From: an uncultured Chloroflexia bacterium
GTDB lineage: Bacteria > Chloroflexota > Anaerolineae > Promineifilales > Promineifilaceae
Assembly (NCBI GenBank): GCA_963747345.1
Contig: CAVVFA010000030.1
Coordinates: 265,910 to 329,909 of the forward strand
Length of the DNA stretch: 64,000 nt
Reading direction: 5' to 3'
Shown: in pieces, positions 1-64,000 of the stretch
Position numbering within the stretch: position 1 is the first letter of the stretch
Layout of the letters: every line of letters begins with the position of its first letter
The notes under the pieces: model-generated
Told to the model about the DNA's origin: nothing
Seen by the model: only the letters and a program-made list of their open reading frames with translations
The model's database searches: none
Made by a program: the position numbers and the translations under genes

Positions 1-796
1 TTTTGATACCGTGCTTGAATCAGAAAAGAGGATGGAATCCATCTACGGTGGCCCAATTGAAGACAAAGATATCCTTGAAATTGGCCCAGGCCAAGGCATG
101 ACACGAGCGTACTATTTTGGGCAGAAAAATCGGATTACCACACTCGATACAGATGTTATTGCGCGGGGAATAGATGTGCCAGCCTATTGGCAAATGCTGC
201 ATACAAATGGTATCGGACGAGTACTAAAGTCATTTGGGCGTGAACTCATCATAGGGCGCAAAGACCGATCAACATGGGCAGACATCATTGGCGCCAAAAA
301 GTTAACTGCGCCAGAAAATTTATATGGCGATATTTGCCAGGAAGTTCCCAAAGAAAACGCCTTTGATGTCGTGATGAGTTGGTCAGTTTTTGAGCATGTT
401 CCTGATCCAGACGCCGCATTAGACAATATTTTAAGAGCATTACGACCGGGTGGTATTTTTTATATCAGCTTACATCTATACACATCAAATTCTGGGCATC
501 ATGATATACGTGCTTTTACAGGCAATGAATATGCCTTGCCATTATGGGGCCACTTGCGGCCGTCTACCCAAGATATGATCACCCCTAGCTCTTATTTAAA
601 TGAATGGCGACTGTCACAATATCGGGAAACGTTTTCTGCAAAAGCGCCAGGCCATGTGGAAATTCTTGAGAAATTTGAACATCCAGAAGTATTTGGCCCC
701 GCGCTTCAAGGAGAACTTCGTGAAGAATTAGCCGATTACGATGACGATGAACTGCTTACCGTTAATGTTGTCTATATCGGTAAAAAACCGGAATAA
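1..796 (+). CDS. class I SAM-dependent methyltransferase (5-prime partial, reading frame open to window start)
   Basis: ORF 11-796 with no upstream in-frame stop; motifs LEIGPGQG (SAM-binding glycine motif), FEHV, LRPGG. Confidence 0.6.
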   Translation, partial: FDTVLESEKRMESIYGGPIEDKDILEIGPGQGMTRAYYFGQKNRITTLDTDVIARGIDVPAYWQMLHTNGIGRVLKSFGRELIIGRKDRSTWADIIGAKKLTAPENLYGDICQEVPKENAFDVVMSWSVFEHVPDPDAALDNILRALRPGGIFYISLHLYTSNSGHHDIRAFTGNEYALPLWGHLRPSTQDMITPSSYLNEWRLSQYRETFSAKAPGHVEILEKFEHPEVFGPALQGELREELADYDDDELLTVNVVYIGKKPE

Positions 797-838
797 TTCA
801 GACATTAAAAGTTGCTCAATTGAGAGCTAAAAGAAATG

Positions 839-877
839 AAAAAGCCTGCGGCGATAATCTCGCCGCAGGCTTTTTTG
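839..877. terminator. bidirectional Rho-independent terminator between convergent genes
   Basis: A-run, stem gcctgcggcga/tcgccgcaggc, then T6. Confidence 0.55.
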
Positions 878-904
878 TACCCAGATTTTATAGTGGAACA
901 GAAT

Positions 905-3152
905 CTAGCCGTGTTCTTTCAGTTTTGCCACGACTTTGTATGGCATGAGCGGAATCTCGTCGAACCAGATGCCCGTGGCATCATGCAGGGCGGCAATAAT
1001 GGCGGGAGCCAGCGGCAAGAAGGGCATTTCGGCCATGCCACGTGCCCCCCAGGGGCCAATCGGGTCTGGTATTTCCATGATGATGGATTCGACATGGGTG
1101 GGTATGTCTTTGATGCCAGGAATGAGGTATTGGCTCAAGTAAGGATTAAGAATGCGGCCATCTTTGAGCTGTAAATTTTCCATCAGCGCGTAGCCATGCG
1201 CTTGCACCACAGCCCCTTCAATCTGCCCTTCAACCAGCATGGGGTTGATGGCTTTGCCCACGTCATTGGCACAAACCACGCGGTCGATGCGGATGTGGCC
1301 GGTTTCCACATCTACCGTTAGCTCAACGGCTTCGGCAACATAACCATAGGCAAAGTTGGGCATACAAACGCCCGTTTCCGGGTCATAGGGTTGAGTCGGG
1401 AGGCGGAATATATTTTTCATGGGCGATGGCCGGGCGTTCCTCGTTTTGCCATTTCTCCAACGCTTTTTCGGCAGCCTGGCGAATGGAATTGCCTGCCATA
1501 AAGGTCATGCGCGAAGCCGAGACGGAGCCGGAATTGCCACTGCTGGCTGTGTCGGACATGTCGATTTCAACGAGAGCTACATCTACATTAACGGCCGTTG
1601 CTGCCATTTGTTTGAGCGCGGTGTGAGACCCTTGTCCCACCTCGGCGGCGGCGTGGTGCAAAATCACCTTCTCGATTTCTTTTCCGCCGTGTAACTCAAT
1701 AATCGCTTCACAATTCTCTGGAGCGCCAAAAGAAAAGCCAACATTCTTAAACGAACAGGCAATGCCTCGCCCTCTTTTTAACGATTGAGGATTAGAGACT
1801 AAAGATTGTACGCTGGAAAACTGTCCACCGTTCACTGTTAACTGTTCACTGTTAACTGATAACTGTTCACTGCCCCAGCCAACCCGTTCCGCACAAGTTT
1901 CAAGCACTTCGGTCAGACTGACGCCTTTGGGCATAGGCGTTTGCACGGTGAGCATACTGCCGTCTTTCAGGATATTTTTCAGACGTAGTTCAACGGGGTC
2001 GATGCCCAGCATTTCAGCCAGCTTGTTCATCTGGTTTTCGGCGGCAAATGCCCCTTGTGGGCCGCCAAATCCTCGAAAAGCACCGCCAGGCACGTTGTTG
2101 GTGGTGATGGCGTAGCTGTCGAGGTGGGCGTTGGGGATTTCGTAGGGGCCAGTGACCATGAGGTGGAAGTTGCCCAACACTTTGGTGCTGGTGTAGGCAT
2201 AAGCGCCACTATTCATGAACACTTCGGCGGAAACGGCCGTTATCATGCCATCATTTGTCGCGCCCCACTTTGTTTTAACCACCGCCTCGTGCCGTTTGTG
2301 ATGGCCGCGAATCGAATCTTCGCGGGACCAAACCATGCGCACAGGGCGGTCAATCCCTCGTTCATGCAAACGCATCGCCGCCAGCCCCAGCACAATCTGC
2401 AGTGACATATCCTCCCGTCCACCAAAGGCACCGCCAATGGCTGGATAGATGATGCGCACTTTCTCCAGCGGCAAACCCAAAGAGTGAGCTACTTGTTCCT
2501 GGTCTTCGTGTGTCCACTGCCCGCCAATTTCGATAGTAACGCGCCCTTCCTCATCCATATAACTGAGGCCCGCTTCTGGCTGGAGATACGCATGTTCCTG
2601 ATAAGGCAAGTGATATTCGCTTTCCACAACCACATCGGCTTCTGCCCAGCCAGCCTCCATATCTCCTTTGCGAATCTGATATTTCTTGAGGATATTGGTG
2701 CCATCAGCGCGGTTGACAATGACCTCATCCTTCATCGCCTCAAACATATCGGTGACGATGGGCAACTGTTCCCACTGAATCTGAATCTTGGCGCAGGCAA
2801 TAGCCGCCGCTTCTTCCGTTTCCGCCACGACGAGAGCCACATGGTCACATTCCCACAAGCTGATATCGCTGTAAGGTTTGGGGCTGCCGAGACCTACAAA
2901 AACGGGTTGATCTGGCACGATGAGGCCATATTCGTTGACAGGCACATCTTTTGCTGTGAAAACAGCAACAACACCAGGAACGGCTTCTGCGGCCGCTATA
3001 TCCATCGACAGCATACGGGCATGGGGTTGCTCGCTAAATAGCACTTTGCCATATAACAGGTTTTCTGGCGACCGGTCGCCAGAGTATTCAGCAAGCCCTG
3101 AAACTTTTCCTTTAGCATCCACACGCGGGATGGATTGGGTGTTAATTGTCAT
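905..3152 (-). pseudogene. xanthine dehydrogenase / aldehyde oxidase family molybdopterin-binding large subunit, split by apparent frameshift
   Basis: ORFs 1383-3152 (N-terminal hammerhead plus Mo-binding domains) and 905-1420 (C-terminal domain) overlap in different frames; 589+171 aa matches a normal ~760-aa subunit; frames join at the T5 run 1413-1417 (HEKYI / KNIFRLP). Confidence 0.7.
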
Positions 3153-3665: not shown

Positions 3666-5105
3666 TTAGGATGCCGCTTCAGCCGCTTTTTCCACAGCCT
3701 CGATAATCTTGTAATAACCGGTGCAACGACATAAATTGCCAGCAAAGGCTTGTTGAATTTGAGCCAATTCTGGGGAAGGATTTTCTTCAAGCAGCATGGC
3801 GCCTGACATTAAAAAGCCAGGAATACAGTAGCCGCATTGCACAGCGCCCGTGTCGATAAAGGCTTGTTGCAGTGGATGAAGTGTGCCATTAGTCGCCAAG
3901 CCTTCGATGGTGGTGATGGTGGCGTTATGGGCACGGGGCGCTGGAACCAGGCAAGACATGACGGCCATGCCATCTAAAATAATGGTGCAAGCGCCACATT
4001 CGCCTTCAGCACATCCTTCTTTGGTTCCGGTGAGATAGCCTTCATCGCGCAGCCAGTGGAGGAGTGTTTTGTGTATGCCGCCAACGGCCGTTATCTTTTT
4101 ACCATTCACCGTTGCTGTAATCACCCCATCTTTATCATGACTAGCTGTAAACTCAGAGCCAGTGGGGAATTCGCCATGAGTATCGCCCCAGAGCATGGTG
4201 GGGGCTTGCGGCCAAGTGGTCCGTTCTGCCCCGTCACGCAGGGCGGCGAGGGCGCGTTTTGTGAGTACGCCCACCATTTCCGTGCGATAGACGGCTGGCC
4301 CGCGCACATCGTCGATGGGGGTGGCGGTGGCTGCCGCCAAGCGGGCGGCTTCGGCGATGGTTTCATCGGTCAACTGTTTGCCGACGAGATACGATTCTGC
4401 TTTGGGGGTGGGAATGATGGTGGGCGCGACACAGCCCTGGGTGATGGCGGCTTGTTTCACCGTTTCGCCATCCGCCTCAAAATCGAGAATCAGCGCCAGG
4501 TGGATGACGGAGATGGCCTGGGCACGGCGCAAGCCGAGTTTCACAAACACACCGCGAGCGGTGGCCGGCATGGGGGCAAAGCTGATGTCTACCAGCATTT
4601 CATCTGGCTGCATGACGGTTTTGCGCACGCCTGTGTAAAACTCGGAAAGCGGCACTTTTCTCTCCCCGTTGACTGAGGCCAGGGTGACGGTTGCATTTAA
4701 CGCCCACAGCGGCGAGATGGTGTCGTTGGCGGGGCTGCCGGTGATGATGTTGCCCGCCACGGTGGCGCGGTTGCGCAGCTGCGGCGAGGCAACTTCTCAG
4801 CAAGCCTGAGCCAGCGGGAGTGCTTGTGCCACCAGCAGCGGCGACGCGATGACCTGATTATGGGTCACGAGCGGGCCGAGGTGGATGGTGCCATCGTCGT
4901 CTTGGCTAATTTTGTTGAGGCCAGGGAGACGGGTGATGTCGATGAGCATGTGGCAGTTGCGGCGTTGTCCCCGTTCCAGTTCCAGAAGCAGGTCTGTTCC
5001 ACCAGCTACAAGTCGAGCAAAACGGCCGTTTTTAGCCAGCAGTTTCAAGGTTTCATCAAGGGTGGTTGGTGTTTCGTAACGTGAAATGGTGTGTGGTTGG
5101 TTCAT
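3666..5105 (-). pseudogene. fused FAD-binding (CoxM/XdhB-like) plus [2Fe-2S] (CoxS/XdhA-like) Mo-hydroxylase subunit interrupted by in-frame TGA
   Basis: ORF 4797-5105 (GGTDL FAD_binding_5 N-domain) and ORF 3666-4760 are in the same frame, separated by TGA at 4797-4799; downstream codons give [17 protein letters not shown] (conserved FAD-domain motif), then the CO-dehydrogenase flavoprotein C-domain and CxxGxCGxC...CGYC...CRCTGY ferredoxin motifs. Confidence 0.65.
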
Positions 5106-5184: not shown

Positions 5185-5992
5185 TTAATTGCTCAGGCGT
5201 TTGCCTGTTCCTTGGCGGCGCAGCATGATGATTTCGGCCATGATGCTAATGGCAATTTCGTTGGGGTCTTCGGCGTTGAGTTCCAGGCCGATGGGAGAAT
5301 GAAAACGTGCCAAATCGGCTTCTGTGAGGCCATCTTCTTGCAGCAGGCGGATGGTTTCGGCCCAACGGCGGCGACTGCCCATCACGCCAATGTAGGGTGC
5401 GGGTGACTGGGCGAGGGTGGGCAGAATGTGGCGATCTACGGTTACATTGCGGGTGACGACGACGACGAATGTGTTGCCGCGTGATGGGGGCTGTTTTTTG
5501 CACGTCTTCAATGCTGCCGGGAATGTAGATGTCTGCTTCGGGGATGACGTCTGGCGAGACGAGTTCAGGGCGGTCGTCGCTGACGACGACGCGGTAGCCC
5601 ATCCATTTGGCGAGGCTGGCAACGGCTTGCCCCACATGGCCGCAGCCCAGCACCAAGACGGTGGCTGGCGGCTGATACCGTTCGCAATACACTTCTAGCT
5701 CGCCGCCGCATACGCCGGGGTCGCCGCGCTCGGCGTCGACGAGGGTGTAGGGGATGGTGCGCGGTTGTCCGTCTTGCAGCACTTCTTGGGCGATGGTGCG
5801 CACCCGTGCTTCTAATTCGCCGCCGCCGATTGTGCCACTGGAACGGCCGTTTTCGTAAAATATCATCTTGGCACCTGCATGGCGGGGGGTGGAGCCGCGT
5901 GTTTTGATGATGGTCGCCAGCACCACGGTTTCGCCAGCTTCTTGGGCGGCAAGGAGTTTAGCTACGATTTGGGGATTGGTATCGTTACTCAT
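5185..5992 (-). pseudogene. XdhC/CoxI-family Mo-cofactor insertion accessory protein, apparent frameshift
   Basis: ORF 5246-5992 has the XdhC_CoxI N-domain plus Rossmann start (LVLGCGHVGQA) then nonsense; ORF 5185-5637 in another frame carries the XdhC_C end (VVVTRNVTVD...YIGVMGSRRR...PIGLELNA...ISIMAEII); switch lies in the G5/T6 tract 5485-5500. Confidence 0.6.
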
Positions 5993-6143: not shown

Positions 6144-6423
6144 TCAGCCTGGAAGGTCATTTGGTGGTCTTGCACAGGCGGGGTGGTCGGGGTGACCTAA
6201 AATGACGGATTCATTTCCAGCTATGGTTTTGCCACATTGGCCTCTGGCGGCACATTCTTCACTGCACACCAGGGTGCCTTGTTGTTGGGGAGCGCCTTCT
6301 ACAACGGGCGCTTCATCGCCGCCCCGACTACATCCCAAGACAACTAGCAGAAAAAAAAGAGCCAGCCCAAATAGGCTGACTACTGATTTGTGTTGATGCG
6401 GATGAATGAGAAACGGCCGTTTC
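6144..6423 (-). CDS. small Cys-rich lipoprotein (GTG start, about 93 aa)
   Basis: GGAGG 7 nt upstream of GTG; signal MKRPFLIH...LFFLLVVLGCS with lipobox; mature part has 4 more Cys. Confidence 0.3.
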
Positions 6424-6495
6424 ACGGAGCCTCCGATGATGATTTTCAATGAACTTTTTGTACGGTATTGTTCTGCTGTGTAAACTGCGGAGAAA

Positions 6496-6903
6496 TTAAC
6501 GCCAATCCCAGATGGCTTCCCCATCTAAGACACGCTGCACTTGTGTTGGGAAGGCCGTTGATTTTAACGGTTTGCTGATGAACCCATTAAAACCGGCGTC
6601 GCGGGCTTTTTGCACATCTTCTTCAAATGTACCGGCGGTGACGGCCACAACTTTTGCCCCAGCTAATATGGGATTACTTCTAACGGCTTCAAGCAGTTCA
6701 AAACCACTCCTTCCCGGCATATTAATGTCAACCAGAAACAGGTCTACTTGCGGCAGTTTGGGGGCAAATTCTAAGGCGGCATCGGCGGATTTGCGTGAAT
6801 AACATTGGTCAGCACCACCTAAGCGCAACAAATCCATCGTGACGAGCAGCGCGTTCGGGTCGTCTTCAACAACTATGATGTAAGCATCAGCTAGAGAGGT
6901 CAT
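6496..6903 (-). CDS. stand-alone response regulator receiver (CheY-like)
   Basis: IIVVEDD...DLFLVDINMPG...GFISKP receiver motifs. Confidence 0.75.
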   Translation of the reverse strand: MTSLADAYIIVVEDDPNALLVTMDLLRLGGADQCYSRKSADAALEFAPKLPQVDLFLVDINMPGRSGFELLEAVRSNPILAGAKVVAVTAGTFEEDVQKARDAGFNGFISKPLKSTAFPTQVQRVLDGEAIWDWR

Positions 6904-6990: not shown

Positions 6991-8391
6991 CTAAGCGAGT
7001 TCAAGTAGGGGCAAAACGGCCGTTTCTTCTGCTTCATGAAGGGGAAGTGAAATGGTAAACGTACTACCTTTGCCTACTGTACTCGTAACGGTGAGCGATC
7101 CCCCGTGCCGTTCAATAAGATGTTTGGTAATGGGCAGTCCTAAACCAGTGCCAATCCGTTTACGGGCGGCCGTTTCATCAACCTGTCGGAACTCTTCAAA
7201 AATCGCTTGATGATATTCTGGCGGAATGCCAATACCGGTATCTTCAACCGAAATAGTAAGCGTTTTGGAGCTAGGGATGACACGCAAAGCTATATGGCCT
7301 TTTTCTGTATATTTCGCCGCATTGCCTAATAAGTTAATCAATGATTGCTTGATGCGCATTTGATCGACAGTTACAATCGGCCATTCATCAGGATATTCTC
7401 GCTCAAGCTCAATTTCGTAGTCTTTGTCTAACAACAAGCCTCGGGTACTGGTCATCGCCTCTTCGCAAATGTGATAGAGGTGTGTTTTTTCAAGGTGGAG
7501 CTTGAATTCACCCGATTCGATTTGAGCCATATCCAGCAAATCGTTCAAGACAGTCAATAAATGCCAGCCAGATTGTTCGATGCGTCCCAGGTAATCTTTT
7601 TGCCCATCAGTTACTACACCACGACCGCCCAAGGTTAAGATATGGGCAAAGTTTACAATGGAGTTCAAAGGTGTACGCAACTCATGACTGACGTTGTTCA
7701 TGAAGCGTGTACGCAAATCTCTTTCGCCAATGGCATCCTGCCGAGCTAAGTCCAGTTGACTGTTCATGAAGTTCAAACGGCCGTTTGTCATTCGTAATTC
7801 TTCTTGTGTGCTAAATAAATCATCACGCCGTTGTTGGGCACGCAAGTGTAAATGACTTGTCGATTCGACAGCAATTTGCCATTCAACTGCACTCAAGTAG
7901 GCAACCAAACTGAGCAAAAAGTTAATGGCGATGGGAGGTAAAAAATTGAGCAGTGTGTACACAGAGAGTTCGCCAATAAACCAGAAACCAATCATCATGA
8001 ATAATAAAGATAAACCCCAAGTAATAAAACCAGAGGATGGCGGTAAAATCATGCTGGAAATTATGATAAATAGACCGTAAAGATACGGATAGACACCTAT
8101 ACTATCTGGGTTATAATGGCTCATCATCACGAGTGTAATCATGACAAGATTGAGAATAGTAAAGATCCATCCACCCACTTCTTGATTGCCGCGCTTAATA
8201 AGGTTCCAGGCCACAACGATGCCAATTGGCCCCAAAATAGCATAAGCAAGAAACTGCCATCCATCTGCAAACCCGTATGTTACAGCAACTGCCAAACCGG
8301 TAAATATGATAATAATAGCAGTGACTGGGAAGATTATTTGACTGGAATCTGCACGTAGTTCTTGCCGGTATTCTTGATCCATAATGGCCAT
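6991..8391 (-). CDS. sensor histidine kinase with multi-TM N-terminal domain
   Basis: About 6 TM helices, H-box HELRTPLNSI, HATPase_c G-boxes (GTGLGL). Confidence 0.75.
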   Translation of the reverse strand: MAIMDQEYRQELRADSSQIIFPVTAIIIIFTGLAVAVTYGFADGWQFLAYAILGPIGIVVAWNLIKRGNQEVGGWIFTILNLVMITLVMMSHYNPDSIGVYPYLYGLFIIISSMILPPSSGFITWGLSLLFMMIGFWFIGELSVYTLLNFLPPIAINFLLSLVAYLSAVEWQIAVESTSHLHLRAQQRRDDLFSTQEELRMTNGRLNFMNSQLDLARQDAIGERDLRTRFMNNVSHELRTPLNSIVNFAHILTLGGRGVVTDGQKDYLGRIEQSGWHLLTVLNDLLDMAQIESGEFKLHLEKTHLYHICEEAMTSTRGLLLDKDYEIELEREYPDEWPIVTVDQMRIKQSLINLLGNAAKYTEKGHIALRVIPSSKTLTISVEDTGIGIPPEYHQAIFEEFRQVDETAARKRIGTGLGLPITKHLIERHGGSLTVTSTVGKGSTFTISLPLHEAEETAVLPLLELA

Positions 8392-8670: not shown

Positions 8671-8785
8671 CTTAAATGTTCTGTTTGTCTTGGTTGTGAG
8701 GTATCTTCTCAATATTCAGGTCTTTGCCGCGATCTATTGAGATGTCACGTTGTGAGGAGAGGATGTTAAAAACAAACGGCCGTTG

Positions 8786-11945: not shown

Positions 11946-11975
11946 ATTGTGGGAAAACGGCCGTTTTCCCACAAT
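11946..11975. repeat. 30-bp perfect palindrome ATTGTGGGAAAACGGCCGTTTTCCCACAAT centred on AACGGCCGTT
   Basis: Read directly; intergenic between GHL10 and gdhA. Confidence 0.7.
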
Positions 11976-12002
11976 AGACACCAGTTGCCAATTACCAAGA
12001 AA

Positions 12003-51542: not shown

Positions 51543-51577
51543 CGACAGTGTGGCAGCAAATTTTTCTATAGACGAGG

Positions 51578-51608: not shown

Positions 51609-51719
51609 ATTACCCCCCGATTAGGGTTTCCGAAAACAGAGGCACTCCACCACGATTAGGGTAAAATATGGGGTGCAATACAAGCGCACAAAAATAGTTT
51701 AACCTGGATAGGCATCATT

Positions 51720-55397: not shown

Positions 55398-55410
55398 TAT
55401 ACTTGTTTGC

Positions 55411-55444
55411 AGACCTCCGAGGTTTTAAAAACCTCGGAGGTCTT
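55411..55444 (+). terminator. perfect 14-bp inverted repeat hairpin after der
   Basis: agacctccgaggtt-ttaaaa-aacctcggaggtct. Confidence 0.45.
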
Positions 55445-55475
55445 TGTAGAACGAGAAAGAGAAAAGGCTACAGCA

Positions 55476-56552
55476 ATGGCTGATCAATCCAATCAAATTA
55501 ATGATTATTACGTACAAACCCGACCTGGTTTAGAAGAAATCGCCTGGTTAGAAATTCGAGATATGCTGCCGTATGCTAAATTTGGCGAATATCTATTTGC
55601 CAAAGAGCAAAATGGCGTCGTCACCTTTTCTTATAAGGGGAATATGGCCGATGTCAATCAACTGCTGACCAGTGAAGATGAGTTTTTGCAAGCGCTGTCG
55701 ATACCCAAGCTGTCTCGGGGACGGCAAGATTTGGCTATGATTCAGGAAGCTGTGGCAAAAGGTGAAGAATTTGGCCGCGCTACCAACCAGTTCTTGCGCT
55801 TCCGACAGTTTAGCCACCCGCCATCGTACCGCGTCATTTGCCGGAAGTTTGGCACGCATGAGTATCGCCAATCTAATGTGGAACAGGTTGTTCTTGATGC
55901 GATGATGAAGCGCTATCCACGTTGGCAGCCCATTACCGATGGGCCGCAGGTGGAATTGTGGATCAACTTGCTCGGCTCTCAATTGTTGTGTGGGTTCCGC
56001 ATCACGGACAAAGGCATGAAAAAGCAGCATAAACTGCGCAAAGCCTCGCCTAGTTCGCTGCGCCCATCCGTGGCGGCCGCGATGGTGGGGCTGACGCAGC
56101 CAGATGATGATGATGTCTTTCTGGATCCGTTTTGTGGGGATGGCATTATGTTGCAAGAGCGAAAGCTGTTTGGCAATTATGCCCATTTATGGGGAGCCAA
56201 TGAGGGTATCAGCCAGGTTTCAGTTGCTGAAATGAACCTGGCTTCCAAGAAAAGCAATCGGCTCTCGACGGACATCACGTTGGCGACTTGGGTCAATTTG
56301 AAGCTGCCTTTGGAAGATGAGTCGGTAGACAAGATTGCGACCAACTTGATGGAAGTGGAGATGGATTTGGGTTCTGTTTTCAAGGAAATTGGGCGTGTCT
56401 TAAGGCCGGAGGGAACGGCCGTTATCCTCAGCAGTGAATACGACAAAATCAAAGACACCATCCGCTACCGTCCCGAACTGGAAATCATGACCGGCTACTC
56501 CGTCAAACCCGCCAGCCAGTGGGGTCGGATTTACATCATCAAACGCAAATAG
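55476..56552 (+). CDS. THUMP-domain RNA methyltransferase (RlmL/Trm-like)
   Basis: THUMP-like N-terminus; DPFCGDG SAM motif. Confidence 0.65.
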   Translation: MADQSNQINDYYVQTRPGLEEIAWLEIRDMLPYAKFGEYLFAKEQNGVVTFSYKGNMADVNQLLTSEDEFLQALSIPKLSRGRQDLAMIQEAVAKGEEFGRATNQFLRFRQFSHPPSYRVICRKFGTHEYRQSNVEQVVLDAMMKRYPRWQPITDGPQVELWINLLGSQLLCGFRITDKGMKKQHKLRKASPSSLRPSVAAAMVGLTQPDDDDVFLDPFCGDGIMLQERKLFGNYAHLWGANEGISQVSVAEMNLASKKSNRLSTDITLATWVNLKLPLEDESVDKIATNLMEVEMDLGSVFKEIGRVLRPEGTAVILSSEYDKIKDTIRYRPELEIMTGYSVKPASQWGRIYIIKRK

Positions 56553-56622: not shown

Positions 56623-57931
56623 ATGAAAGTTTACCTCCACAGCATCGGCTGCCGCCTGAACCAGAGCGAAATCGAGACCATGGCCCGCCAGCTTCTTGCC
56701 GCCGGACATGAGATTGTCACAGAAACGGCCGTTGCCGATAAAGTCATCATCAACACCTGCGCCGTCACCGCCGAAGCCGCCAGCGACGCCCGCAGTCATG
56801 ACGCGGCGCATCCACCGCCAAAACGACGCCGCCGAAATTCTGCTCACTGGCTGTTACGCCACCATCGCCCCCGACGAACTGGGTAAAGTGGCCGGAGCCG
56901 GACGCATCGTCCTCAACAAAGACAAAGCTAACCTCGTGCCCCTGCTCGACCCCAAAGCCCGCATCGACCTGCCCCTGTTTGACCAGGAACCCGTCATGCG
57001 CGAATTTTTGGCAGGCACGGCGGGCAATACCCGCGCCTTCATCAAAGTGCAGGATGGCTGCAACAACAAATGCACCTTCTGCGTCACCACGATTGCGCGA
57101 GGCGAAGGCCAAAGCCGCCACTTGGGCGACATCATCGCCGAAATTCAGGCGCTGACCACCGCTGGCTACCAAGAAGCGGTGCTTTCAGGCGTGCATATGG
57201 GCAGTTATGGCTACGATTTTGGCAACCGAGCTGGACTGATGGAACTGGTGCAGGCCATCCTCGACCACACCGACATCCCCCGCTTGCGCCTCTCCTCGTT
57301 GGAACCGTGGGACATTGCGCCCGGCTTCTTTACCCTGTGGCAAAACCCGCGCTTGCTGCCCCATCTGCACATGCCCCTGCAATCTGGTTGTGACCGCACG
57401 TTGCGGCGCATGGCGCGGCGTACCAATCAGGTCAGCTTCCGTGAACTGGCTGACGCCGCCCGCGCCCACATCCCCGACCTCAACCTGAGCAGCGACATCA
57501 TCGTCGGTTTCCCTGGCGAAACGGAAGATGAGTTCCAAACCAGTCTTGATTATGTGCGTGAGATTGGTTTTTCGCGGCTGCACGTCTTCACCTACAGCCA
57601 GCGCCCCGGTACGGCCGCCGCCACCATGCCCGACCAGATTCCAGGCCCCGTCAAAAAAGAGCGCGTGCAGCGCATGATTGCCCTGGGCAACGAGATGAGC
57701 CTCGCCTTCCACCAGCAGTACGAAGGCAAAACGATGAATGTGCTCTGGGAAAGCAGTGTCGGTGCGAACAGCCACGGCCTGCGCTGGGTGGGCTACACGG
57801 ACAACTACATCCGCGTCAACGGACACGGCCCTGCTGATTTGTTTAATAGGGTGACGACTGTGAGGTTGGAAAACGCGAGGGTTGATGGCATGGATGGCGT
57901 GATTTTAGGTAAGGGCCAGGCAATCGTGTAA
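56623..57931 (+). pseudogene. MiaB/RimO-family radical-SAM methylthiotransferase, apparent frameshift after the N-terminal MTTase domain
   Basis: ORF 56623-56886 (MKVYLHSIGCRLNQSE...IINTCAVTAEAASDARS then nonsense); ORF 56696-57931 in another frame (...ILLTGCYA..., CNNKCTFC radical-SAM motif, TRAM end); switch at 56775-56800. Confidence 0.7.
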
Positions 57932-58048: not shown

Positions 58049-58666
58049 TTACTCGTCTTCCTCAAATACCTGCGTGGTAAAGATAAACAAGTCAGCGGTG
58101 CGCCAGGCATCAGGGCGTAAGCCGGCCTTGCGGCAAATGGCTTCCAGGTATTCATCCCGCGACCAGCCAAACATGCCCGGCACTTGCGGCAGCAGCAAGC
58201 CCCGCTTTTGGCCGCCGACGATAACGAGACCGTGTACGCCTAACTCAATCTCTTCGATGTGGGTAACGGCCGTTAACGCCGAGAGGATCGAGATTTCAAT
58301 GTGGAGGGTGGGCAGCTCAACGGCCGTTACCGGTGGAAACCTCGGATCACGCAGCGCCGCCTTCACCGCCATCACCGGCACTAACTCAATCAGCCGTTCA
58401 TCCGCAGTCATATGGCCGATGCAGCCGCGCAGCCGGGCGGCAGTATCGGGGGGCAGGCCAGGCTGCCAGCGGGTGCGCAGCGTAACAAATACCCCCGCTT
58501 TCTGCTGAAGAATGGGGTCATCTGTTTGTGACGGAGGAAACCGCTTGGCTTGCAGGTAATAGCCAATTGCTTCACGCGCTAAAACAAGCAGCTCACGCTG
58601 CTGCGCGTCGTTCAATGTCAAAATAGGGTGGGGAACTGCCTGGGATTCACTTTCTGTGCTTGTCAT
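58049..58666 (-). CDS. AMMECR1-domain protein
   Basis: About 200 aa with the conserved RGCIG motif. Confidence 0.6.
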   Translation of the reverse strand: MTSTESESQAVPHPILTLNDAQQRELLVLAREAIGYYLQAKRFPPSQTDDPILQQKAGVFVTLRTRWQPGLPPDTAARLRGCIGHMTADERLIELVPVMAVKAALRDPRFPPVTAVELPTLHIEISILSALTAVTHIEEIELGVHGLVIVGGQKRGLLLPQVPGMFGWSRDEYLEAICRKAGLRPDAWRTADLFIFTTQVFEEDE

Positions 58667-58930: not shown

Positions 58931-60373
58931 ATGGCAAAACAAGACAAACTCACCCCGCGCAGCGAGGATTTCAACGAATGGTACAACACCGTCGTGCAAA
59001 AAGCGGATATGGCCGACTATGGGCCAGTGCGTGGCACGATGATCGTCAAGCCCTATGGTTGGGCTTTGTGGGAAAATATACAAGGCGCGTTAGACAGCCG
59101 CTTTAAAGCCACAGGTGTGCAAAACGCCGGCTTCCCCATGTTTATCCCCATGAGCTTCTTGCAAAAAGAAGCGGCCCATGTGGAAGGCTTTGCCCCTGAA
59201 CTCGCCGTCGTCACCATTGGCGGTGGGCAGGAACTGGCAGAACCTCTCGTCGTCCGTCCCACCTCGGAGACGATGATTGGACACGCCTACTCCAACTGGA
59301 TTCAGAGCTACCGTGATTTGCCGATGCTGCTCAATTTGTGGAACAGTGTTGTCCGCTGGGAACTGCGCACCAAGCTCTTCCTGCGCACCCTGGAATTCTA
59401 CTGGCAAGAAGGCCACACCGCCCACGCCACCGCCGAAGAAGCGGATGAACGCACCCGCCTGATGCTGGATGTGTACACCGACTTTGCTGTCAACGAAGCG
59501 GCCGTGCCTGTGATTCCTGGTATTAAATCAGATATGGAACGGTTTGCTGGGGCCAACGAAACCATGACCATTGAAGCGATGATGGGCGATGGCAAAGCGC
59601 TGCAATCGGGTACTTCTCACAATTTGGGCGAAAATTTTGCCAAAGCGTTCGATATTCAATACCTCGATAAGAACAACGAATTGCAAAATGCGTGGACAAC
59701 TTCCTGGGGTTTGAGTACCCGCTTCATCGGCGCCATTATCATGACGCATGGTGACGACCACGGCTTGATTTTGCCGCCCCGTTTGGCTCCTTATCAGACA
59801 GTGATTGTGCCGATTTACAAGAATGATGAAGAAAAAGAAGCCGTTCTCGAAGCGACCAATCGCATTCAGCAAGAACTCATTGCCGCTCATGTTCGTGTTA
59901 AAGTCGATGACCGCGAAAACTTGACCCCTGGCTTCAAGTTCAACGACTGGGAAATGCGCGGCGTACCAACCCGCATTGAAATCGGCCCGCGTGATGTGGA
60001 GAAGAATTCGGTGGCCTTAGCCCGCCGCGATATTCCAGGACGGGATGGCAAGCAGTTTGTGTCGCAGGATGGCATTGCGCAAACGGTGGCTGATTTGCTG
60101 GTGACGGTGCAGCAAGCACTCCTGGATCGGGCGACCAAATTCCGTGACGACAATACGCATGACGTGGACAACTATGATGATTTCAAAACGGCCGTTTCCA
60201 CAGGATTTGCTCGCGTGTGGTGGGCAGGAGACAGCGCCGAAGAGACCCAGGTCAAAGAAGAAACCAAAGCCACCATCCGCTGCTTCCCCATCGACCAGCC
60301 CGGCGGCACAGGCACCTGTTTCTTCACCGGCAAACCAGCTGATAGAATCGCCATCTTTGGCCGCGCTTATTAA
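58931..60373 (+). CDS. proS: prolyl-tRNA synthetase, archaeal/eukaryal-type (no INS editing domain, about 480 aa)
   Basis: Class II motifs; length and N-terminus typical of the arch/euk-like ProRS found in some bacteria. Confidence 0.8.
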   Translation: MAKQDKLTPRSEDFNEWYNTVVQKADMADYGPVRGTMIVKPYGWALWENIQGALDSRFKATGVQNAGFPMFIPMSFLQKEAAHVEGFAPELAVVTIGGGQELAEPLVVRPTSETMIGHAYSNWIQSYRDLPMLLNLWNSVVRWELRTKLFLRTLEFYWQEGHTAHATAEEADERTRLMLDVYTDFAVNEAAVPVIPGIKSDMERFAGANETMTIEAMMGDGKALQSGTSHNLGENFAKAFDIQYLDKNNELQNAWTTSWGLSTRFIGAIIMTHGDDHGLILPPRLAPYQTVIVPIYKNDEEKEAVLEATNRIQQELIAAHVRVKVDDRENLTPGFKFNDWEMRGVPTRIEIGPRDVEKNSVALARRDIPGRDGKQFVSQDGIAQTVADLLVTVQQALLDRATKFRDDNTHDVDNYDDFKTAVSTGFARVWWAGDSAEETQVKEETKATIRCFPIDQPGGTGTCFFTGKPADRIAIFGRAY

Positions 60374-60435: not shown

Positions 60436-60445
60436 AGGTATTTAT

Positions 60446-62177
60446 ATGAAACTTTCACGAGCATTTGGCAAAACATTACGAGAAGCACCGGCCGACGCCG
60501 AACTAGCCAGCCATCAACTCCTCATTCGAGCAAATTACGTACGGCCGATTGGGGCGGGTATTTACGTATTTATGCCATTGGGCTACCGTGTCATCCGCAA
60601 AATTTGGGAGATTATGGCGCAGGAGATGGATGCCATCGACGGGCAGGAAATGTGGATGCCCAACCTGAATCCGGCGGCGCTGTGGCAGGCAACCGGGCGC
60701 TGGGACACGGTAGATGTGCTCATGAAAGTGAAAGCGGGCGGCGGGCGTGAATATGCCCTGTCAGCTACTCACGAAGAAGTAGTGACGGAACTGTGCCTGC
60801 GCGACATCGAAAGTTACCGTGATTTGCCGCGCATGATCTACCACATCAGCAAGAAGTTCCGGGATGAACCGCGTGCGCGTGGCGGCTTGCTGCGCCTGCG
60901 TGAGTTCATCATGAAAGACGCCTACACCCTCGACCCCGACGAAGAATCCTTCGACGCCTATTATCCCCAGATGCTCCAGGCGTATTACAATATTTTTGAA
61001 CGGGTTGGCACACCCGCTGTCGCCGTGCAAGCCGATACCGGCAGTATGGGCGGCAAAACCTCGCACGAGTTTGTTGTGCCGCACGAAGAAGGCGAAGATA
61101 CCTACATCGCCTGTACCGAATGCGATTATGCGGCTAATGTGGAAGCGGCCGAATTCGTGCGTGAAGGTGACAAACCGGCTGAGTTGGCCGAGTTGGTCAA
61201 AGTCGCCACGCCGGATTGCAAGACAATTGCGGATGTGGCGGCGTTTGTGGGTGTCGAGACGAACCAGACGGTGAAGGCTGTCTTTTTCTGGCGGTGGCCG
61301 TTAGGAGAAAGTGAGGAGAAACGGCCGTTTCGTATTCATACTTGTGCGCGGCGATTTAGATATCAACGAAATCAAACTCATCAATGCGTTGGGCGGCGGG
61401 CAGCTTCGTGCCGCCACCGAGGAAGAAATTCGGGCGGCGGGAGCAGAACCGGGCTACGCCTCAGCCATTGGCTTGGACATCGCCCAAGATTTTGAGCAGC
61501 CAGGCGTGTTTGTCATGGCCGACACCTCCATTGAGGCAGGTGGCAACTTCGTCGTGGGCGCAAATGATGCTGGCTATCATTTCACCGGAGCCAACTACCC
61601 GCGCGACTTCGCCGTCAGCCAAATTGCTGACATTGCCCAGGCGGATACGGGACACAAATGTCCCCACTGCGGCGCGGCAATCGAAGCACGGCGCTGCACG
61701 GAAGCGGGACACTGTTTCAAACTAGGCACCCGTTACTCTGACCCGACTGGTGCTACTTTCCTCGATGAAAATGGCAAGCCACAACCCATCTTCATGGGCT
61801 CATACGGCATTGGGCTAGACCGGCTGATGGCGACGATTGTGGAACAACATCATGACGAACAGGGCATTGTCTGGCCGGATGCGGTCGCGCCGTATCAAGT
61901 TCATTTGCTCCATCTGGGCAAGGGCGACGACGTGAAAGAAGCGGCGGATAACCTGTATGCGGAACTACGCCAGGCTGGTTTGGAAGTGCTGTACGATGAC
62001 CGCGAAGCCAGCGCGGGTGTGAAGTTTAACGATGCGGATTTGATGGGGCTGCCTTGGCGCGTGACGGTTGGTGGACGTGGACTGGCGCAAGGTACGGTCG
62101 AAGTGAAGCGCCGTAATCAGGAAGATCGTGAATCCGTGCCGTTGGCCGAGTTAATTTCTTTTCTCAAATCAGCGTAG
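60446..62177 (+). pseudogene. proS: prolyl-tRNA synthetase, bacterial-type (with INS region), apparent frameshift inside an AACGGCCGTT palindrome
   Basis: ORF 60446-61495 (MKLSRAFGKTLREAPADAE...) becomes nonsense after KAVFFW; ORF 61311-62177 in another frame continues (...GRFVFILVRGDLDINEIK... anticodon-binding end); switch at 61317-61330. Confidence 0.7.
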
Positions 62178-62355
62178 CTATTTGATCTTAAGCTGAAACT
62201 CCATTTTTATCCTCAATCATGTTATTTCCATAAAGGTTGGCTTTTTTGCAAAGCCAATCTTTATTTGGATATTCCTCTGGTCTTTTGATAAATTATTAGG
62301 CACAATCTGGTTGTAGGTTGATTGCCCCGCTTCTTTAATTTTGGATACTGCATAA

Positions 62356-64000
62356 ATGGATAGCCCACGACTCTCACTTTTGCTTATATCTGCTGATGCC
62401 CAACTCGCTGACGAGTGGGTGGCGATGCTGCAACAGTCTGTGCCGATGGTTGAGGTGGTGTTTGTGGTGGAAACGGCCGTTTCCCTTCCCCAAGCTCTAG
62501 AAAAACTCAACCACGCCCCCTGATGTGGTTTTGCTGTATAGTGATGACGAGTTGGAGATAACGGCCGTTGTTGACCAGTTCCCCCACGCCCCAATTATTC
62601 TCATTACAGATAACGACGACACCCAAACTGAGTCAATGGCACAGACCTCGGTGGTAACTGATGTTTTGCCACGAGCGCAACTCACCGCGCCGCTGTTTGT
62701 GCGTGTGTTGTACCATGCGTATCAAGTGCGCCACTATGCCACTATCCGAGACAAAGCGCGTGAGCATCGTCAGATTTCTGAGGCGCTATTGCGGGCGGGT
62801 GTGGAGATGAATGCCATCCTGAATTACGATGAGATGCTGGATAGCATATTAAAATATGCAGCTTATTTCTTCCCCTACGATATGGCAACCATCATGCTCG
62901 TAGAGGAAGACTTGGTGCGCATTGAACGGCTGCGGACGGCTGATGTAGACAAGTCGGTGCAATGGGCGATGGAAAAAGCTGCGAATACGATATTCTCCCT
63001 TGCCGAGACTCGGAATTTGAGAGAAGTTGTGGAAAACGGCCGTTATCTTATCATTCCAAACATCGACAACTACCCAGATTGGATCCATATTCGATCCGAT
63101 TTTTACATTCGTTCATGGATAGGTGTTCCTTTAATTGTAAAGGGGCAGATCATGGGCATCTTAACGCTAGACAGCCTGCGGCCAGATGTCTATCAAGATG
63201 ATGATGGACAGATGTTGGCGGCATTTGCGGCCCAGGCGGCATTGGCTTTGCATAATGCCCATATCCACCAAAACCGTCAGCGAGAGGTTTCAGAATTATC
63301 AGCGCTTCATGCCATTGCCCAGACCAGCACAGAAGCCATGACGGTGGATGAACTGCTTACCCGCTGTACGCAGATTGTCGCTGAGAAACTATACCCGGAC
63401 AGCTTTGGCTTTATTCTCGTCAACGATGATGGTGTTACTATGAGTGCCCATCATGCGTTTCATAACCGTCTGCCAGTCTTGCATCCTAAAAAACTGCCGA
63501 TTGGCACGGGCGTGGTCGGCCAAGTTATTCAAATGGGGCAAATGCGCCATGTTTCTGATATTCGAACGGATACAAAATATGCGGATATTGTGGCGCATAC
63601 ACATTCAGAGTTATGTGTGCCATTGCAGGTGCGGGGGCAAATAATTGGCGCTATTAATGCGGAAAGCATTTTGTTTGGTGCCTTTACCGAAGCAGATGAA
63701 CGGTTCCTGGTGGCCTTGTCGCAGCAATTAGCGACTGGGATTGAACGAATTCAACTGCTGGAAGCGGAACGTAAAAATCGAGAAGAGGCAGAAAAATTAC
63801 GTGATGCAGCCGCTTTTTTGACGACATCATTAGATTTGGAGCAAGTTTTTAACAATATTTTGAGCAGGTTGGAGGAAGTTGTACCGCATGATAGCGCTTC
63901 TGTGATGTTGCGGCATGGAGAAGAATTGGTGATTGTCGCCGCACGCGGTTTTGCAGAGCCAGGCAGGCTTATAGGCCAGAGCTTTCAGGCTAATTTGCTT
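62356..64000 (+). CDS. multi-GAF sensor protein with N-terminal receiver-like domain (3-prime partial); apparent frameshift at C5 62516-62520
   Basis: Hand translation: MDSPRLSLLLISADAQ...LNHAP(P)DVVLLYSDDEL... then at least two GAF domains; open to the window end; missed by the ORF track because there is no stop. Confidence 0.5.

Follow-up and report, generated by a model that had tools for sequence, protein, structure and literature searches.

The 10-base palindrome AACGGCCGTT, which occurs about once per kb in a 64-kb window (the whole stretch of 64,000 nucleotides analysed here) from an uncultured Chloroflexia bacterium, is best explained as a lineage-specific highly iterated palindrome of Ardenticatenales/Promineofilaceae-type Chloroflexota and a functional analogue of cyanobacterial HIP1; we put the probability that it is a HIP-class element at roughly 85%. 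The HIP1 phenomenon would in that case be repeated outside cyanobacteria, in a member of the Chloroflexota as well as in its relatives and their phages, and AACGGCCGTT would offer a second system, beside HIP1, for learning what such words do. A literature search found no publication describing AACGGCCGTT as an iterated palindrome.

An exact search of the window returned 61 perfect copies, where the original prediction had counted about 65, against an average of 0.04 (never more than 1) in 100 dinucleotide-preserving shuffles and 0.25 expected under an order-3 Markov model. The hyper-abundance is therefore real, and all 39 positions listed in that prediction match real copies within about 11 nt. 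One-mismatch variants, previously put at about 10, number nine against about 1.9 expected, giving an all-or-none spectrum (61 perfect vs 9 one-off) in which 7/9 variants deviate at positions 1, 2 or 10. These are AACGCCCGTT (1367..1376), AACGGCCGTG (14871..14880; the same in L081, L082, L085 and L087), TACGGCCGTT (16310..16319; the same in L082 and L087), AATGGCCGTT (22278..22287), GACGGCCGTT (37212..37221), ATCGGCCGTT (41904..41913 and 46283..46292), AACGGCCGTC (51328..51337) and AACGGCCGTA (52434..52443); the variant at 22278..22287 is read as a C-to-T change at CpG because L082 carries the intact word at the orthologous site. A..T flanks surround ACGGCCGT in 61 of its 66 occurrences in the window, 66 of the 90 CGGCCG hexamers fall within ACGGCCGT, and both GGCC and CGGCCG outside the motif stand at background level, neither depleted nor over-represented. 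The 10-mer is the true unit in the window. Cyanobacterial HIP1 has the same all-or-none spectrum of perfect copies and few one-off variants, and its CGATCG core is not over-represented outside HIP1 (Elhai, PMC4390886); AACGGCCGTT parallels it in the spectrum, and CGGCCG outside the full word behaves as CGATCG does.

The copies are spaced slightly more evenly than random (CV 0.78, P=0.03). When their 30-nt flanks were compared at a 60% cut-off (3660 comparisons), extended sharing was confined to a local trio at 34336, 36516 and 37019, with four further pairs barely reaching the cut-off in one 30-nt flank each. The proposed checks against Markov expectation and for confinement to a repeat family, run on the window, thus found the word enriched and its flanks unique, and a repeat family is therefore rejected. 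An assembly artefact is also rejected, as independent NCBI, ENA and Logan assemblies hold AACGGCCGTT in frame at orthologous sites, and JGI viral contigs are dense in it as well. For one local mosaic the suggestion that the motif marks a recombination junction holds: in the chimeric fragment 36378-36578, a duplicate of the EamA gene's 3' end (36378-36530) and one of the cyclase gene's 3' end (36516-36578) are joined exactly at AACGGCCGTTGC, a perfect copy plus GC (36516..36527). The copy at 34336..34345, in the cyclase ORF 33314..34402(+), starts the 63-nt repeat D3 that recurs at 36516-36578, and the copy at 37019..37028, in the EamA ORF 36881..37369(-), ends repeat D1.

There is no preference for coding over non-coding DNA: ORFs make up about 91% of the window and hold 54/61 copies (P=0.49). 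Within genes every one of the three phases is used, as had been claimed: xxA-ACG-GCC-GTT (X-T-A-V) by 37 copies, AAC-GGC-CGT (N-G-R) by 12 and xAA-CGG-CCG-TTx (R-P) by 5. T-A-V is the most over-represented tripeptide in the window (39 observed vs 8 expected, about 5-fold) and is encoded ACG-GCC-GTT in 37/39 cases, where codon usage predicts 2.7%; N-G-R is also about 5-fold in excess (14 vs 2.9), with AAC-GGC-CGT codons in 14/14. Since three frames are used and the T-A-V excess is carried by ACG-GCC-GTT codons, the word has been imposed on DNA as such, overriding codon usage and amino-acid sequence, and proteins are altered. Imposition on DNA rather than selection on protein had been proposed from the start, and the excess of both tripeptides in motif codons and the different ancestral residues at orthologous sites bear it out. 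The T-A-V footprint is found in the roughly 45 closest homologues and is absent from distant ones.

Copies were assigned to ORFs and frames. The X-T-A-V frame is read at 1590..1599 and 2232..2241 (ORF 1383..3152(-)), 4083..4092 (3666..4760(-)), 7015..7024 (6991..8391(-)), 10273..10282 (9400..10353(-)), 10525..10534 (10498..11847(-)), 20793..20802, 21906..21915, 22263..22272, 23091..23100 and 23307..23316 (all in the NB-ARC/TPR ORF 20775..23816(-)), 23942..23951 (23745..27035(+)), 27628..27637 (27112..27798(-)), 29425..29434 (28748..29668(+)), 30246..30255 and 30999..31008 (29665..31017(+)), 32640..32649 (31104..32951(-)), 40056..40065 (39798..40358(-)), 44995..45004 (44671..45342(-)), 53476..53485 (52532..54040(+)), 56414..56423 (55407..56552(+)), 58265..58274 and 58319..58328 (58049..58666(-)), 62472..62481 (62217..62594(-), an uncertain gene) and 62560..62569 (62525..64000(+)); it gives G-T-A-V in the phosphoglycerate kinase gene (41997..42006 in 41361..42575(-)) and I-T-A-V in the carbamoyltransferase gene (48918..48927 in 48280..49206(+)). 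N-G-R is read at 5021..5030 (4797..5105(-)), 5842..5851 (5246..5992(-)), 7776..7785 (6991..8391(-)), 10698..10707 (10498..11847(-)), 21800..21809 (20775..23816(-)), 24546..24555 (23745..27035(+)), 28207..28216 (27787..28818(+)), 33479..33488 (33314..34402(+)), 35459..35468 (34965..36329(-)) and 63035..63044 (62525..64000(+)), and R-P at 6412..6421 (6144..6524(-)), 37858..37867 (37797..38432(-)), 44616..44625 (43496..44656(-)), 56724..56733 (56696..57931(+)) and 61320..61329 (60446..61495(+)). Copies at 8775..8784, 38489..38498 and 40685..40694 lie between ORFs.

In relatives at 75-77% nucleotide identity, 23/29 window copies are perfect at the orthologous position (P=1e-15), whereas 10-mers in general are kept in 8-13% of cases and those encoding the same amino acids in 14-23%; the call to look for the motif at orthologous sites was thus answered positively. 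The closest relative, L087 (91% nucleotide identity), keeps 7/7. Genomes sharing orthologous copies agree at only about 50-56% of third codon positions, and retention of the word lies far above what synonymous divergence allows. HIP1 is conserved at orthologous positions (PMC5861425), and the retention of AACGGCCGTT parallels this. Copies kept in L081, L085 and L087 are found in the glutamate dehydrogenase gene 12079..13329(-) (13039..13048, K-T-A-V) and the DUF92 ORF 13550..14359(+) (14026..14035, G-T-A-V); the copy at 14529..14538 in the WD40 ORF 14439..15368(+) (N-G-R frame) is kept in L081, L082 and L087, and that at 20566..20575 in the PALP ORF 19750..20697(-) (Q-T-A-V) in L081, L082/3 and L085. 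In the VIT/VWA gene, the copy in its frameshifted 3' part (17004..17013, minus strand, E-T-A-V) is kept in L081, L082/3, L085 and L087, and those at 17256..17265 (N-G-R frame) and 19189..19198 (G-T-A-V) in the ORF 17098..19257(-) are kept in four relatives. The E-T-A-V copy at 18166..18175 in this ORF is common to L087 only and is a recent gain: L081, L082/3 and L085 have AGCAGCCAAT, AGCGGCCGCT and AGCGGCCAAT there, encoding E-A-A-N or E-A-A-A. The L082 orthologue lacks the copies at 21800..21809 (where it has ATCGGTCAAT) and 23307..23316.

New copies arose in place via clustered, amino-acid-changing substitutions and not by transposition. In the prolyl-tRNA synthetase gene 58931..60373(+), the copy at 60187..60196 (K-T-A-V) shares its ACGGCCGT core with L009 and L002, seven other relatives have K-E-A-I-like codons, and the change from K-E-A-I to K-T-A-V has CGGCCG-containing intermediates in L003 and L005. 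The VIT/VWA site changed from E-A-A-N to E-T-A-V, other gains differ at 3-7 per 10 nt, and the ancestral residues at motif sites of the VIT/VWA family are PAA, AAA/AAN and DGV.

The ACGGCCGT core is found at 0.3-2 per kb in at least 14 related genomes. The 10-mer is the dialect of L004, L081-L087 and L090, the bare 8-mer predominates in L001, L009, L089 and L091, an intermediate state is seen in L002 (where the 10-mer accounts for about half of the 8-mers), and in L007 and L008 an alternative palindrome, TGCCGGCA, replaces ACGGCCGT; neither was found in the other phyla compared. The core in the relatives is the 8-mer, and the trait is common to a clade. Tailed-phage and prophage contigs bearing terminase, portal, capsid or tape-measure genes have 1.7-3.7 cores per kb, a density that equals or exceeds that of the host, with the frames used as in the window; a plasmid-like contig falls within this range too and has the same frame use.

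The proposed resemblance to HIP1 and DNA uptake sequences holds for density, frame use and conservation. To say that it works like HIP1 fixes no mechanism, because the mechanism of HIP1 is itself still unexplained. Our first choice, which we hold tentatively and at somewhat less than even odds, is a drive by methylation-linked repair or recombination; blended with HIP-class identity, the overall reading is slightly favoured. AACGGCCGTT would be bound by a dimeric, sequence-specific protein of the host, the most likely player, to judge from HIP1 and its alternates, being a solitary DNA methyltransferase on the CGGCCG/GGCC core, partnered by a reader with a link to mismatch repair or recombination. 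Near-matches beside the methylated core would be corrected towards the full word in a one-way ratchet saturating at about one site per kb, with a lost site corrected back or selected against, and any DNA long replicating in the lineage, phages included, would as a consequence converge on the word. Some environmental genomes have 4mC and 5mC methylation specific to CGGCCG (Nanomotif supplement). A word of ten fixed bases with flanks, however, exceeds typical Type II methyltransferase specificity, and a different reader may define it; the recommended search, covering the window and roughly 300 kb of related DNA, found no DNA methyltransferase, Vsr-type nuclease or other candidate reader, and the window has no restriction gene.

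An uptake signal is our second choice as the cause. A drive by uptake or by recombination would account equally well for the phage enrichment, for the doubled tripeptides and for a density of about 1 per kb, and conservation at orthologous sites fits selection for function and biased repair alike. A dedicated recombinase, another cause suggested at the outset, may instead be responsible. The classical restriction footprint that had been suggested is unlikely: genomes normally avoid restriction targets, and this word is enriched. GGCC, and CGGCCG outside the motif, show no depletion, and in phages the word is as dense as in the host or denser.

Flank bias around the copies had been described as (T/G/A) before and (T/A) after the word; this is a genuine bias (per-position P from 1e-4 to 1e-8), for which GG-W-AACGGCCGTT-W-CC is the better notation, and it stays symmetric even after sites are oriented by reading direction. 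AACGGCCGTT is a double-strand DNA word of 10 invariant bases within a weaker 16-bp palindrome. Larger palindromes include a 30-bp perfect one, ATTGTGGGAAAACGGCCGTTTTCCCACAAT (11946..11975), which has the copy at 11956-11965 at its centre and lies between ORFs, downstream of the glutamate dehydrogenase gene; an imperfect one, TGGGGCTAAACGGCCGTTATCCCCCA, holding the copy at 31096..31105 between convergent ORFs; and a 20-bp perfect one, TGTGAAACGGCCGTTTCACA (33070..33089), with the copy at 33075-33084 in its middle, which lies between divergent genes and whose hairpin, read on the minus strand, precedes a U-run. An intrinsic-terminator-like hairpin on the plus strand (51574..51613) is built around the copy at 51586-51595, about 30 nt past the stop of ORF 49254..51542, and has a 15-bp stem and a GGCC loop; UUUUUAUU follows the hairpin.

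The palindromic word AACGGCCGTT was found by exact search in 61 perfect copies in the 64-kb window, where a mean of 0.04 copies (maximum 1) was obtained in 100 dinucleotide-preserving shuffles and 0.25 copies are expected under an order-3 Markov model, corresponding to an enrichment of 240-1500-fold. Every position listed in the original prediction, which had put the number at ~65, matches a real copy within ~11 nt, and the excess over k-mer background that it proposed is borne out. One-mismatch variants number 9 in the window (~1.9 by chance) beside the 61 perfect copies, and the copy spectrum is therefore nearly all-or-none; seven of the nine deviate at position 1, 2 or 10. The 8-mer core of the word, ACGGCCGT, occurs 66 times in the window and is flanked by A and T in 61 instances, the 10-mer being the unit in this genome, whilst the inner 6-mer CGGCCG lies within ACGGCCGT in 66 of its 90 occurrences; the other 24 are at about background level, as is GGCC generally. 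Flanking bases tend, more weakly but symmetrically, toward GG-W to the left of the ten invariant bases and W-CC to the right, and the 16-mer form of the palindrome is GGAAACGGCCGTTTCC. This preference stays when the sites are oriented by the reading direction of the gene (P from 1e-4 to 1e-8 per position), and since the two sides then fall on different codon positions it is a signal at the DNA level. Being a perfect palindrome, the word is without orientation; its copies are spaced at a mean of 1024 nt, slightly more evenly than random (CV 0.78, P=0.03).

Under a simple ORF model that covers ~91% of the window, 54 of the 61 copies (88%) lie inside ORFs, the same as for random placement (P=0.49), and the genes that carry them include those for prolyl-tRNA synthetase (ProRS; 58931..60373, plus strand), phosphoglycerate kinase, glutamate dehydrogenase and a carbamoyltransferase, alongside other housekeeping genes. 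Three reading frames are used, namely X-T-A-V (xxA-ACG-GCC-GTT; 37 copies), N-G-R (AAC-GGC-CGT; 12 copies) and R-P (xAA-CGG-CCG-TTx; 5 copies). T-A-V tops the over-represented tripeptides of the window ORFs (39 observed, 8 expected), and ACG-GCC-GTT encodes 37 of the 39, where codon usage predicts 2.7% (P=6e-56); N-G-R is present 14 times (2.9 expected), with the codons AAC-GGC-CGT in all. Because the excess of both tripeptides resides in nearly one codon set, it is the DNA word that has reshaped the proteins and not the reverse. The tripeptides encoded by the word are ~5-fold enriched, and the copies are found at poorly conserved residues. Selection at the protein level for a peptide motif, to which the frequency of T-A-V might be attributed, deserves next to no credence: the same DNA word stands in three frames and between genes, a single codon triplet accounts for 37 of the 39 T-A-V, and homologues outside the clade carry other residues at those positions, and so the view that the word is imposed at the DNA level stands. 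A mobile repeat (MITE or REP-like) merits as little, for although some intergenic copies lie within long palindromes, 88% of copies are in genes, housekeeping genes included, and their flanks are unique save for one local mosaic. When 30-nt flanks were compared between all pairs, extended flanking sequence was common only to the local trio at 34336, 36516 and 37019, four further pairs just touching the 60% cut-off in one 30-nt flank only; confinement of the copies to one repeat family, the outcome named beforehand as counting against the original prediction, was thus not what was found. As a class, REP/MITE-type dispersed repeats (intergenic, imperfect palindromes of 20-40 nt that share extended sequence) were rejected in view of the intra-ORF location and the unique flanks, and an assembly artefact was rejected as the word is present in independent assemblies and conserved in-frame.

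The origin of individual copies can be followed in related genomes. In a gap-free alignment of ProRS from eleven genomes, codon 420 lies within K-E-A-I (AAGAAGCCATCC) in most, and within K-T-A-V with ACGGCCGT in the window and the related loci L009 and L002; at codon 303 the core is present in L001, L009 and L002, and the window has K-E-A-V. L003 and L005 have intermediate ProRS sequences in which CGGCCG is already present. Eleven orthologous genes, spanning ~14 kb of the window, were codon-aligned with three genomes of 75-77% nucleotide identity, in which third codon positions are only 50-56% identical. Of 29 window copies so compared, 23 are matched by a perfect 10-mer in the relative (P=1e-15), against a retention of 8-13% for any 10-mer and of 14-23% for 10-mers encoding the same amino acids, so that the conservation at orthologous positions which had been proposed as a check is clearly present. 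A closer relative (L087, 91% identical) has kept 7 of 7 copies plus both one-off variants. Lineage-specific copies differ from the orthologue at 3-7 of the 10 positions, with amino acids changed (e.g. E-A-A-N to E-T-A-V), and the ancestral residues at four motif sites of the VIT/VWA gene (~16833-19269, minus strand), as judged from 120 homologues, are PAA, AAA/AAN, DGV and, at one site, variable. Such amino-acid-changing differences, taken with the retention at orthologous sites, indicate that copies arise in place through clusters of substitutions at residues under little constraint, and that they are retained from then on.

The ProRS of the window is 85% identical to that of MAGs labelled Ardenticatenaceae or Anaerolineae, and the DNA of a contig labelled Promineofilaceae is 91% identical to window positions 12079-19333; on these similarities the window is assigned to the chromosome of an Ardenticatenales/Promineofilales-type member of the Chloroflexota. 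The distribution of the word was followed in 80 loci that surround ProRS in many phyla and, the ProRS synteny being short for large-scale orthologue work, in a second set around homologues of the window VIT/VWA gene (L081-L092). Among the ProRS loci, ACGGCCGT ranks first among 8-mer palindromes in the closest Chloroflexota alone (L001, L002, L003, L004, L005 and L009); in L007 and L008, labelled Ardenticatenaceae, its place is taken by TGCCGGCA, at 7-10 copies in 8-9 kb, and Caldilineaceae and all other phyla have neither. In the second set ACGGCCGT is present at 0.85-1.7 per kb in eleven loci, L092 being almost without it, and across relatives the density of the core ranges from 0.3 to 2 per kb. 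The word is found in dialects, with the 10-mer in the window, L004, L081-L087 and L090, mainly the bare 8-mer in L001, L009, L089 and L091, and an intermediate state in L002, where 11 of 23 8-mers form the 10-mer. One-off variants of the 8-mer in L001 and L009 deviate at positions 1 and 8. In keeping with the distribution of the DNA word, T-A-V is found 2-4 times in each of the ~45 VIT/VWA homologues nearest the window (at least 70% identity) and mostly not at all in more distant ones.

Several observations on these loci can be added. Read backwards letter by letter, ACGGCCGT gives exactly TGCCGGCA, which is equally its complement, and L007 and L008 have little or no CGGCCG; between palindromic 8-mers a mirror relation has a chance of 1 in 256, and it may be either coincidental or meaningful. 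CGGCCG is also nearly missing from the related loci L006 (1 in 14 kb) and L007 (0 in 8.4 kb), where ~3-5 are expected in these small samples, a scarcity that could reflect an EagI-type restriction system in relatives without ACGGCCGT. In L089, four copies of ACGGCCGT at 18416, 18542, 18668 and 18794 are spaced exactly 126 nt apart within a 312-aa gene that is, by synteny and size, the counterpart of the WD40-repeat gene of the window (14439..15368); here the motif probably sits in each repeat unit and has been multiplied by repeat duplication. L091 has a defence-type island at ~1-9.8 kb with BrxC/BrxD-like, AbiEii and Macro/DarT genes and a GC content down to 0.38. A stretch of ~7 kb without ACGGCCGT (6250-13200) starts at the edge of the island and includes its Macro/DarT end, whilst the left part of the island and the remaining locus have ~1 ACGGCCGT per kb. 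The gap is consistent with recently acquired DNA still without the word, though it also spans the native VIT/VWA gene.

The word is not restricted to chromosomes. A scan of IMG/VR for two 10-mer copies lying 34-64 nt apart returned 21 stretches, many of them saturated with the core far above the two copies demanded by the search. ACGGCCGT is present 49 times in the 13.2 kb examined of L094, 44 times in 14.7 kb of L093, 31 times in both L098 (15.0 kb) and L112 (14.3 kb), 29 times in 14.0 kb of L110, 22 times in 12.9 kb of L102 and 20 times in 10.8 kb of L099, that is at 1.7-3.7 per kb, at or above chromosomal density and in the reading frames used by the host. Genes for terminase, portal and major head proteins are found on L098, for portal and/or head-protease/major-head proteins on L102 and L112, and for a tape measure protein on L099; these tailed-phage contigs may be prophages. 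The genes of L094, for ParA, an anti-repressor (Ant), an FtsK-like protein and a transglycosylase, suggest a plasmid or an integrative (ICE-like) element. Paired TGCCGGCA in viral sequences consists mostly of chance matches in GC-rich phages, among the matches listed. As a sharp signature, the word lends itself to binning, and it could also be used to assign phages and plasmids to their hosts among the Chloroflexota of wastewater and soil.

Seven copies in the window lie between ORFs or at the edge of one, and several of these form the centre of longer palindromes, including a perfect 30-bp palindrome 3' of the glutamate dehydrogenase gene (11946-11975) and a 20-bp palindrome at 33070-33089. 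A hairpin at 51574-51613, ~30 nt past a stop codon, has a 15-bp stem and a GGCC loop followed by UUUUUAUU (a U-run), and looks like a textbook intrinsic terminator. The word had also been predicted to mark recombination junctions, and one such case is present. The segment 36378-36578 is a chimera of two gene ends: on the left it repeats the 3' end of an EamA transporter gene (compare 36881-37033), on the right that of a cyclase gene (34336-34398; 92% identical), and the two halves join exactly at AACGGCCGTTGC. As the word is the only long identity between the two unrelated loci, microhomology alone is a sufficient explanation of the join. The EamA 3' end itself exists in three copies of 84-88% identity (34840-34992, 36378-36530 and 36881-37033), the first of which has GAATGGTTCGTT in place of the word present in the other two, and the EamA gene (36881-37793) is seemingly split into the overlapping ORFs 37236..37793 and 36881..37369.

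HIP1 (GCGATCGC), the iterated palindrome of cyanobacteria, has been known for ~30 years, with methylation-directed repair, chromosome architecture and DNA uptake all still under discussion in the debate on its origin and function. In VSP repair in E. coli, near-cognate sequences are pushed toward the cognate word. All of the tested properties of the present word match the HIP class. HIP1 and its cyanobacterial alternates are short GC-rich palindromes, over-represented tens- to hundreds-fold, at ~0.3-2.7 per kb (PMC4390886, PMC5861425) which, like the word, are dispersed with unique flanks through coding and non-coding DNA in all frames and are often symmetrically extended to 10 bases; their inner methyltransferase-type 6-mer is unenriched alone, their one-off variants deviate mostly at outer positions, they are conserved at orthologous sites (PMC5861425) and they have been implicated at rearrangement junctions. 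Related cyanobacterial lineages also swap one palindrome for another, and the GCCGGC-type alternate of Elhai resembles TGCCGGCA (PMC4390886). The likeness to HIP1 and to uptake sequences that was suggested at the outset is thus confirmed in density (~1 per kb), frames and conservation. HIP1 proper is excluded, the word being AACGGCCGTT in a genome of the Chloroflexota; since sequence and phylum both differ, it can only be termed HIP-like. Further differences are the lack of an internal GATC, the 10-base invariant core with a 16-bp consensus, and the high density in tailed phages, for which no HIP1 counterpart was found in the literature; the HIP1 story is defined by matching, usually solitary methyltransferases that recognise the word or its core, and none matching the present word was found in the DNA examined. 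The literature found on iterated palindromes concerns cyanobacteria only, and no report was found of iterated palindromes in Chloroflexi or of ACGGCCGT as a genomic repeat, although subscription journals were thinly covered and an earlier mention is possible. What is new is a HIP-type word (or, in its bare form, ACGGCCGT) of different sequence and phylum (Chloroflexota, Anaerolineae), whose core is longer and whose abundance in phages is documented.

For the mechanism, our first choice, held at a probability of roughly 0.4, is a methylation-linked repair or recombination drive of the type proposed by Elhai. The CGGCCG/GGCC core would be the target of a solitary methyltransferase, and a repair or recombination activity that reads the methylation would resolve mismatches toward the full word, giving a one-way ratchet that would saturate near one site per kb and resist loss. 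Such a drive would account for one-off variants that deviate at the edges, for a bare core no commoner than background, for the switches between dialects and for the way in which phage DNA has converged on the word. It has a precedent in the VSP repair of E. coli (Dcm/Vsr, CCWGG-related words), in which methyltransferase-linked mismatch correction toward the cognate word is likewise a one-way ratchet, but the VSP effect is modest, few-fold on 4-5-mers, compared with hundreds-fold on a 10-mer here. Ten invariant bases plus flanks are long for a methyltransferase, which weighs against the model. Six-frame translations of the window contain no DNA methyltransferase signatures; its only methyltransferase-like gene (55407-56552, plus strand), with a UPF0020 (RlmK/L-like) domain and the motif FLDPFCGDG, probably encodes an RNA methyltransferase. 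Six-frame translations of 30 related or viral loci yielded just two generic phage N6_N4 DNA methylases, and neither a Vsr nor a C5-methyltransferase gene came to light in the window and the related or viral loci examined. Methylated CGGCCG is listed for unrelated bins, with nothing for this clade, in the Nanomotif supplement. The two phage genes, on motif-bearing viral contigs, lie at 10199-11494 (minus strand) of L107 and 7024-7947 (minus strand) of L113, the former with ~190 additional N-terminal residues; their closest PDB relatives are of DpnA and CcrM type, from which specificity cannot be inferred. It is possible, albeit with less probability than the methylation-linked drive, that the word belongs to an independent, non-cyanobacterial HIP system acting as a lineage-wide 'self-DNA watermark', in which a dimeric reader of the 16-bp palindrome would favour marked DNA, so that marked chromosome, plasmid or phage DNA would gain in repair, recombination or uptake.

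The second choice after methylation-linked drive, and a doubtful one, is a signal for DNA uptake or transformation-recombination like the DUS of Neisseria and the USS of Pasteurellaceae, whereby a surface or periplasmic receptor would prefer word-bearing DNA and the word would build up in the genome by molecular drive, as fragments from conspecifics were taken up and recombined again and again. The perfect copies, which far outnumber one-off variants, would be expected of such a signal, and the intergenic copies inside terminator-like palindromes recall the inverted DUS pairs of Neisseria. To our knowledge, neither natural competence nor a sequence-specific uptake receptor is known in this phylum, the Anaerolineae included; no competence genes were found in the 64-kb window. 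Known uptake sequences are non-palindromic and come from two proteobacterial families only, whereas the word is a palindrome without the asymmetry of DUS and USS; its abundance in tailed phages at or above the host level is not predicted, unless these are long-resident prophages, and the switch of the sister lineage (L007 and L008) to a wholly different palindrome exceeds the known DUS dialects. The word does match DUS (Neisseriaceae) and USS (Pasteurellaceae) in its core of ~10 nt with weaker flanks, its density of ~1 per kb, its mostly perfect copies, and its location both in genes, with preferred frames and inflated tripeptides at poorly conserved residues (PMC2817400), and in intergenic terminator hairpins. 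USS double their tripeptides and likewise prefer poorly conserved positions (Findlay and Redfield 2009, PMC2817400), and methylated HIP1 has been reported to boost transformation up to 100-fold, with HIP1 abundance correlating with type IV secretion system DNA-uptake genes (bioRxiv 10.1101/2024.09.10.611283 and 10.64898/2026.06.24.733823).

A Chi-like recombination or anti-degradation 'self' mark working from either side, with a helicase-nuclease or other repair complex reading the word so that marked DNA would be repaired and not degraded, is unlikely. It would suit the word-rich phages and plasmid-like element, as a mark shielding their DNA within the host, and the one chimeric junction exactly at the word, yet that junction needs nothing beyond microhomology. 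Known Chi sites span 5-8 nt and are asymmetric with a strand skew, and a palindrome gives no orientation. Chi-type hotspots and KOPS-type skewed words were for this reason rejected as classes, although a Chi-like role has been suggested for HIP1 by Kamoku and Nielsen. Less likely again is a protein-binding site in nucleoid or chromosome architecture, maintained because chromosome structure is under selection, as proposed by Xu, Lawrence and Durand for HIP1, which is conserved and periodic (PMC5861425). Strong positional conservation, the slightly even spacing and a 16-bp palindromic consensus typical for a dimeric DNA-binding protein are in line with such a site, but 64 kb is too short for the 10-90 kb periodicity reported for HIP1 and the origin of the sites is left without explanation. 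Neither is the high density in phage structural-gene modules and the plasmid-like element predicted, and the abundance in tailed phages argues against a purely architectural role as it does against restriction. A classical restriction-modification footprint, offered as one option in the original prediction, is highly improbable: the word does contain the cores GGCC (HaeIII-type) and CGGCCG (EagI-type), but restriction targets are normally depleted, and here the full word is enriched in host and phages alike with GGCC and non-motif CGGCCG at background. Restriction targeting, mobile repeats and peptide selection are effectively excluded.

A second, unrelated word in another phylum with the same behaviour (density, rewritten proteins, orthologous conservation and lineage dialects) suggests a general mechanism behind the HIP phenomenon, not a peculiarity of cyanobacteria. 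The word also shows that a DNA-level drive can move the frequency of specific tripeptides ~5-fold. Closely related genomes in three states provide natural contrasts for finding the genes responsible. If the watermark reading is true, comparison of gene content inside this single order, across sister lineages with ACGGCCGT, AACGGCCGTT, TGCCGGCA or none, together with cyanobacteria, could reveal the long-sought HIP machinery.

Rfam and tRNA scans of the window gave no matches. The VIT/VWA gene (16833-19269, minus strand) is split over two frames in the window, with one additional base near 17217 and a second 1-nt difference near 16843 relative to L087 (91% identical), where the gene is intact and 812 aa long; the split reflects either a pseudogene formed by frameshift or an error of assembly. 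At the junction of the ORFs 37236..37793 and 37797..38432, the 14-nt unit CCAATCTCTAATCT forms a perfect tandem duplication (37790-37817) which belongs to a 27-nt inverted repeat (37757-37783 and 37799-37825).
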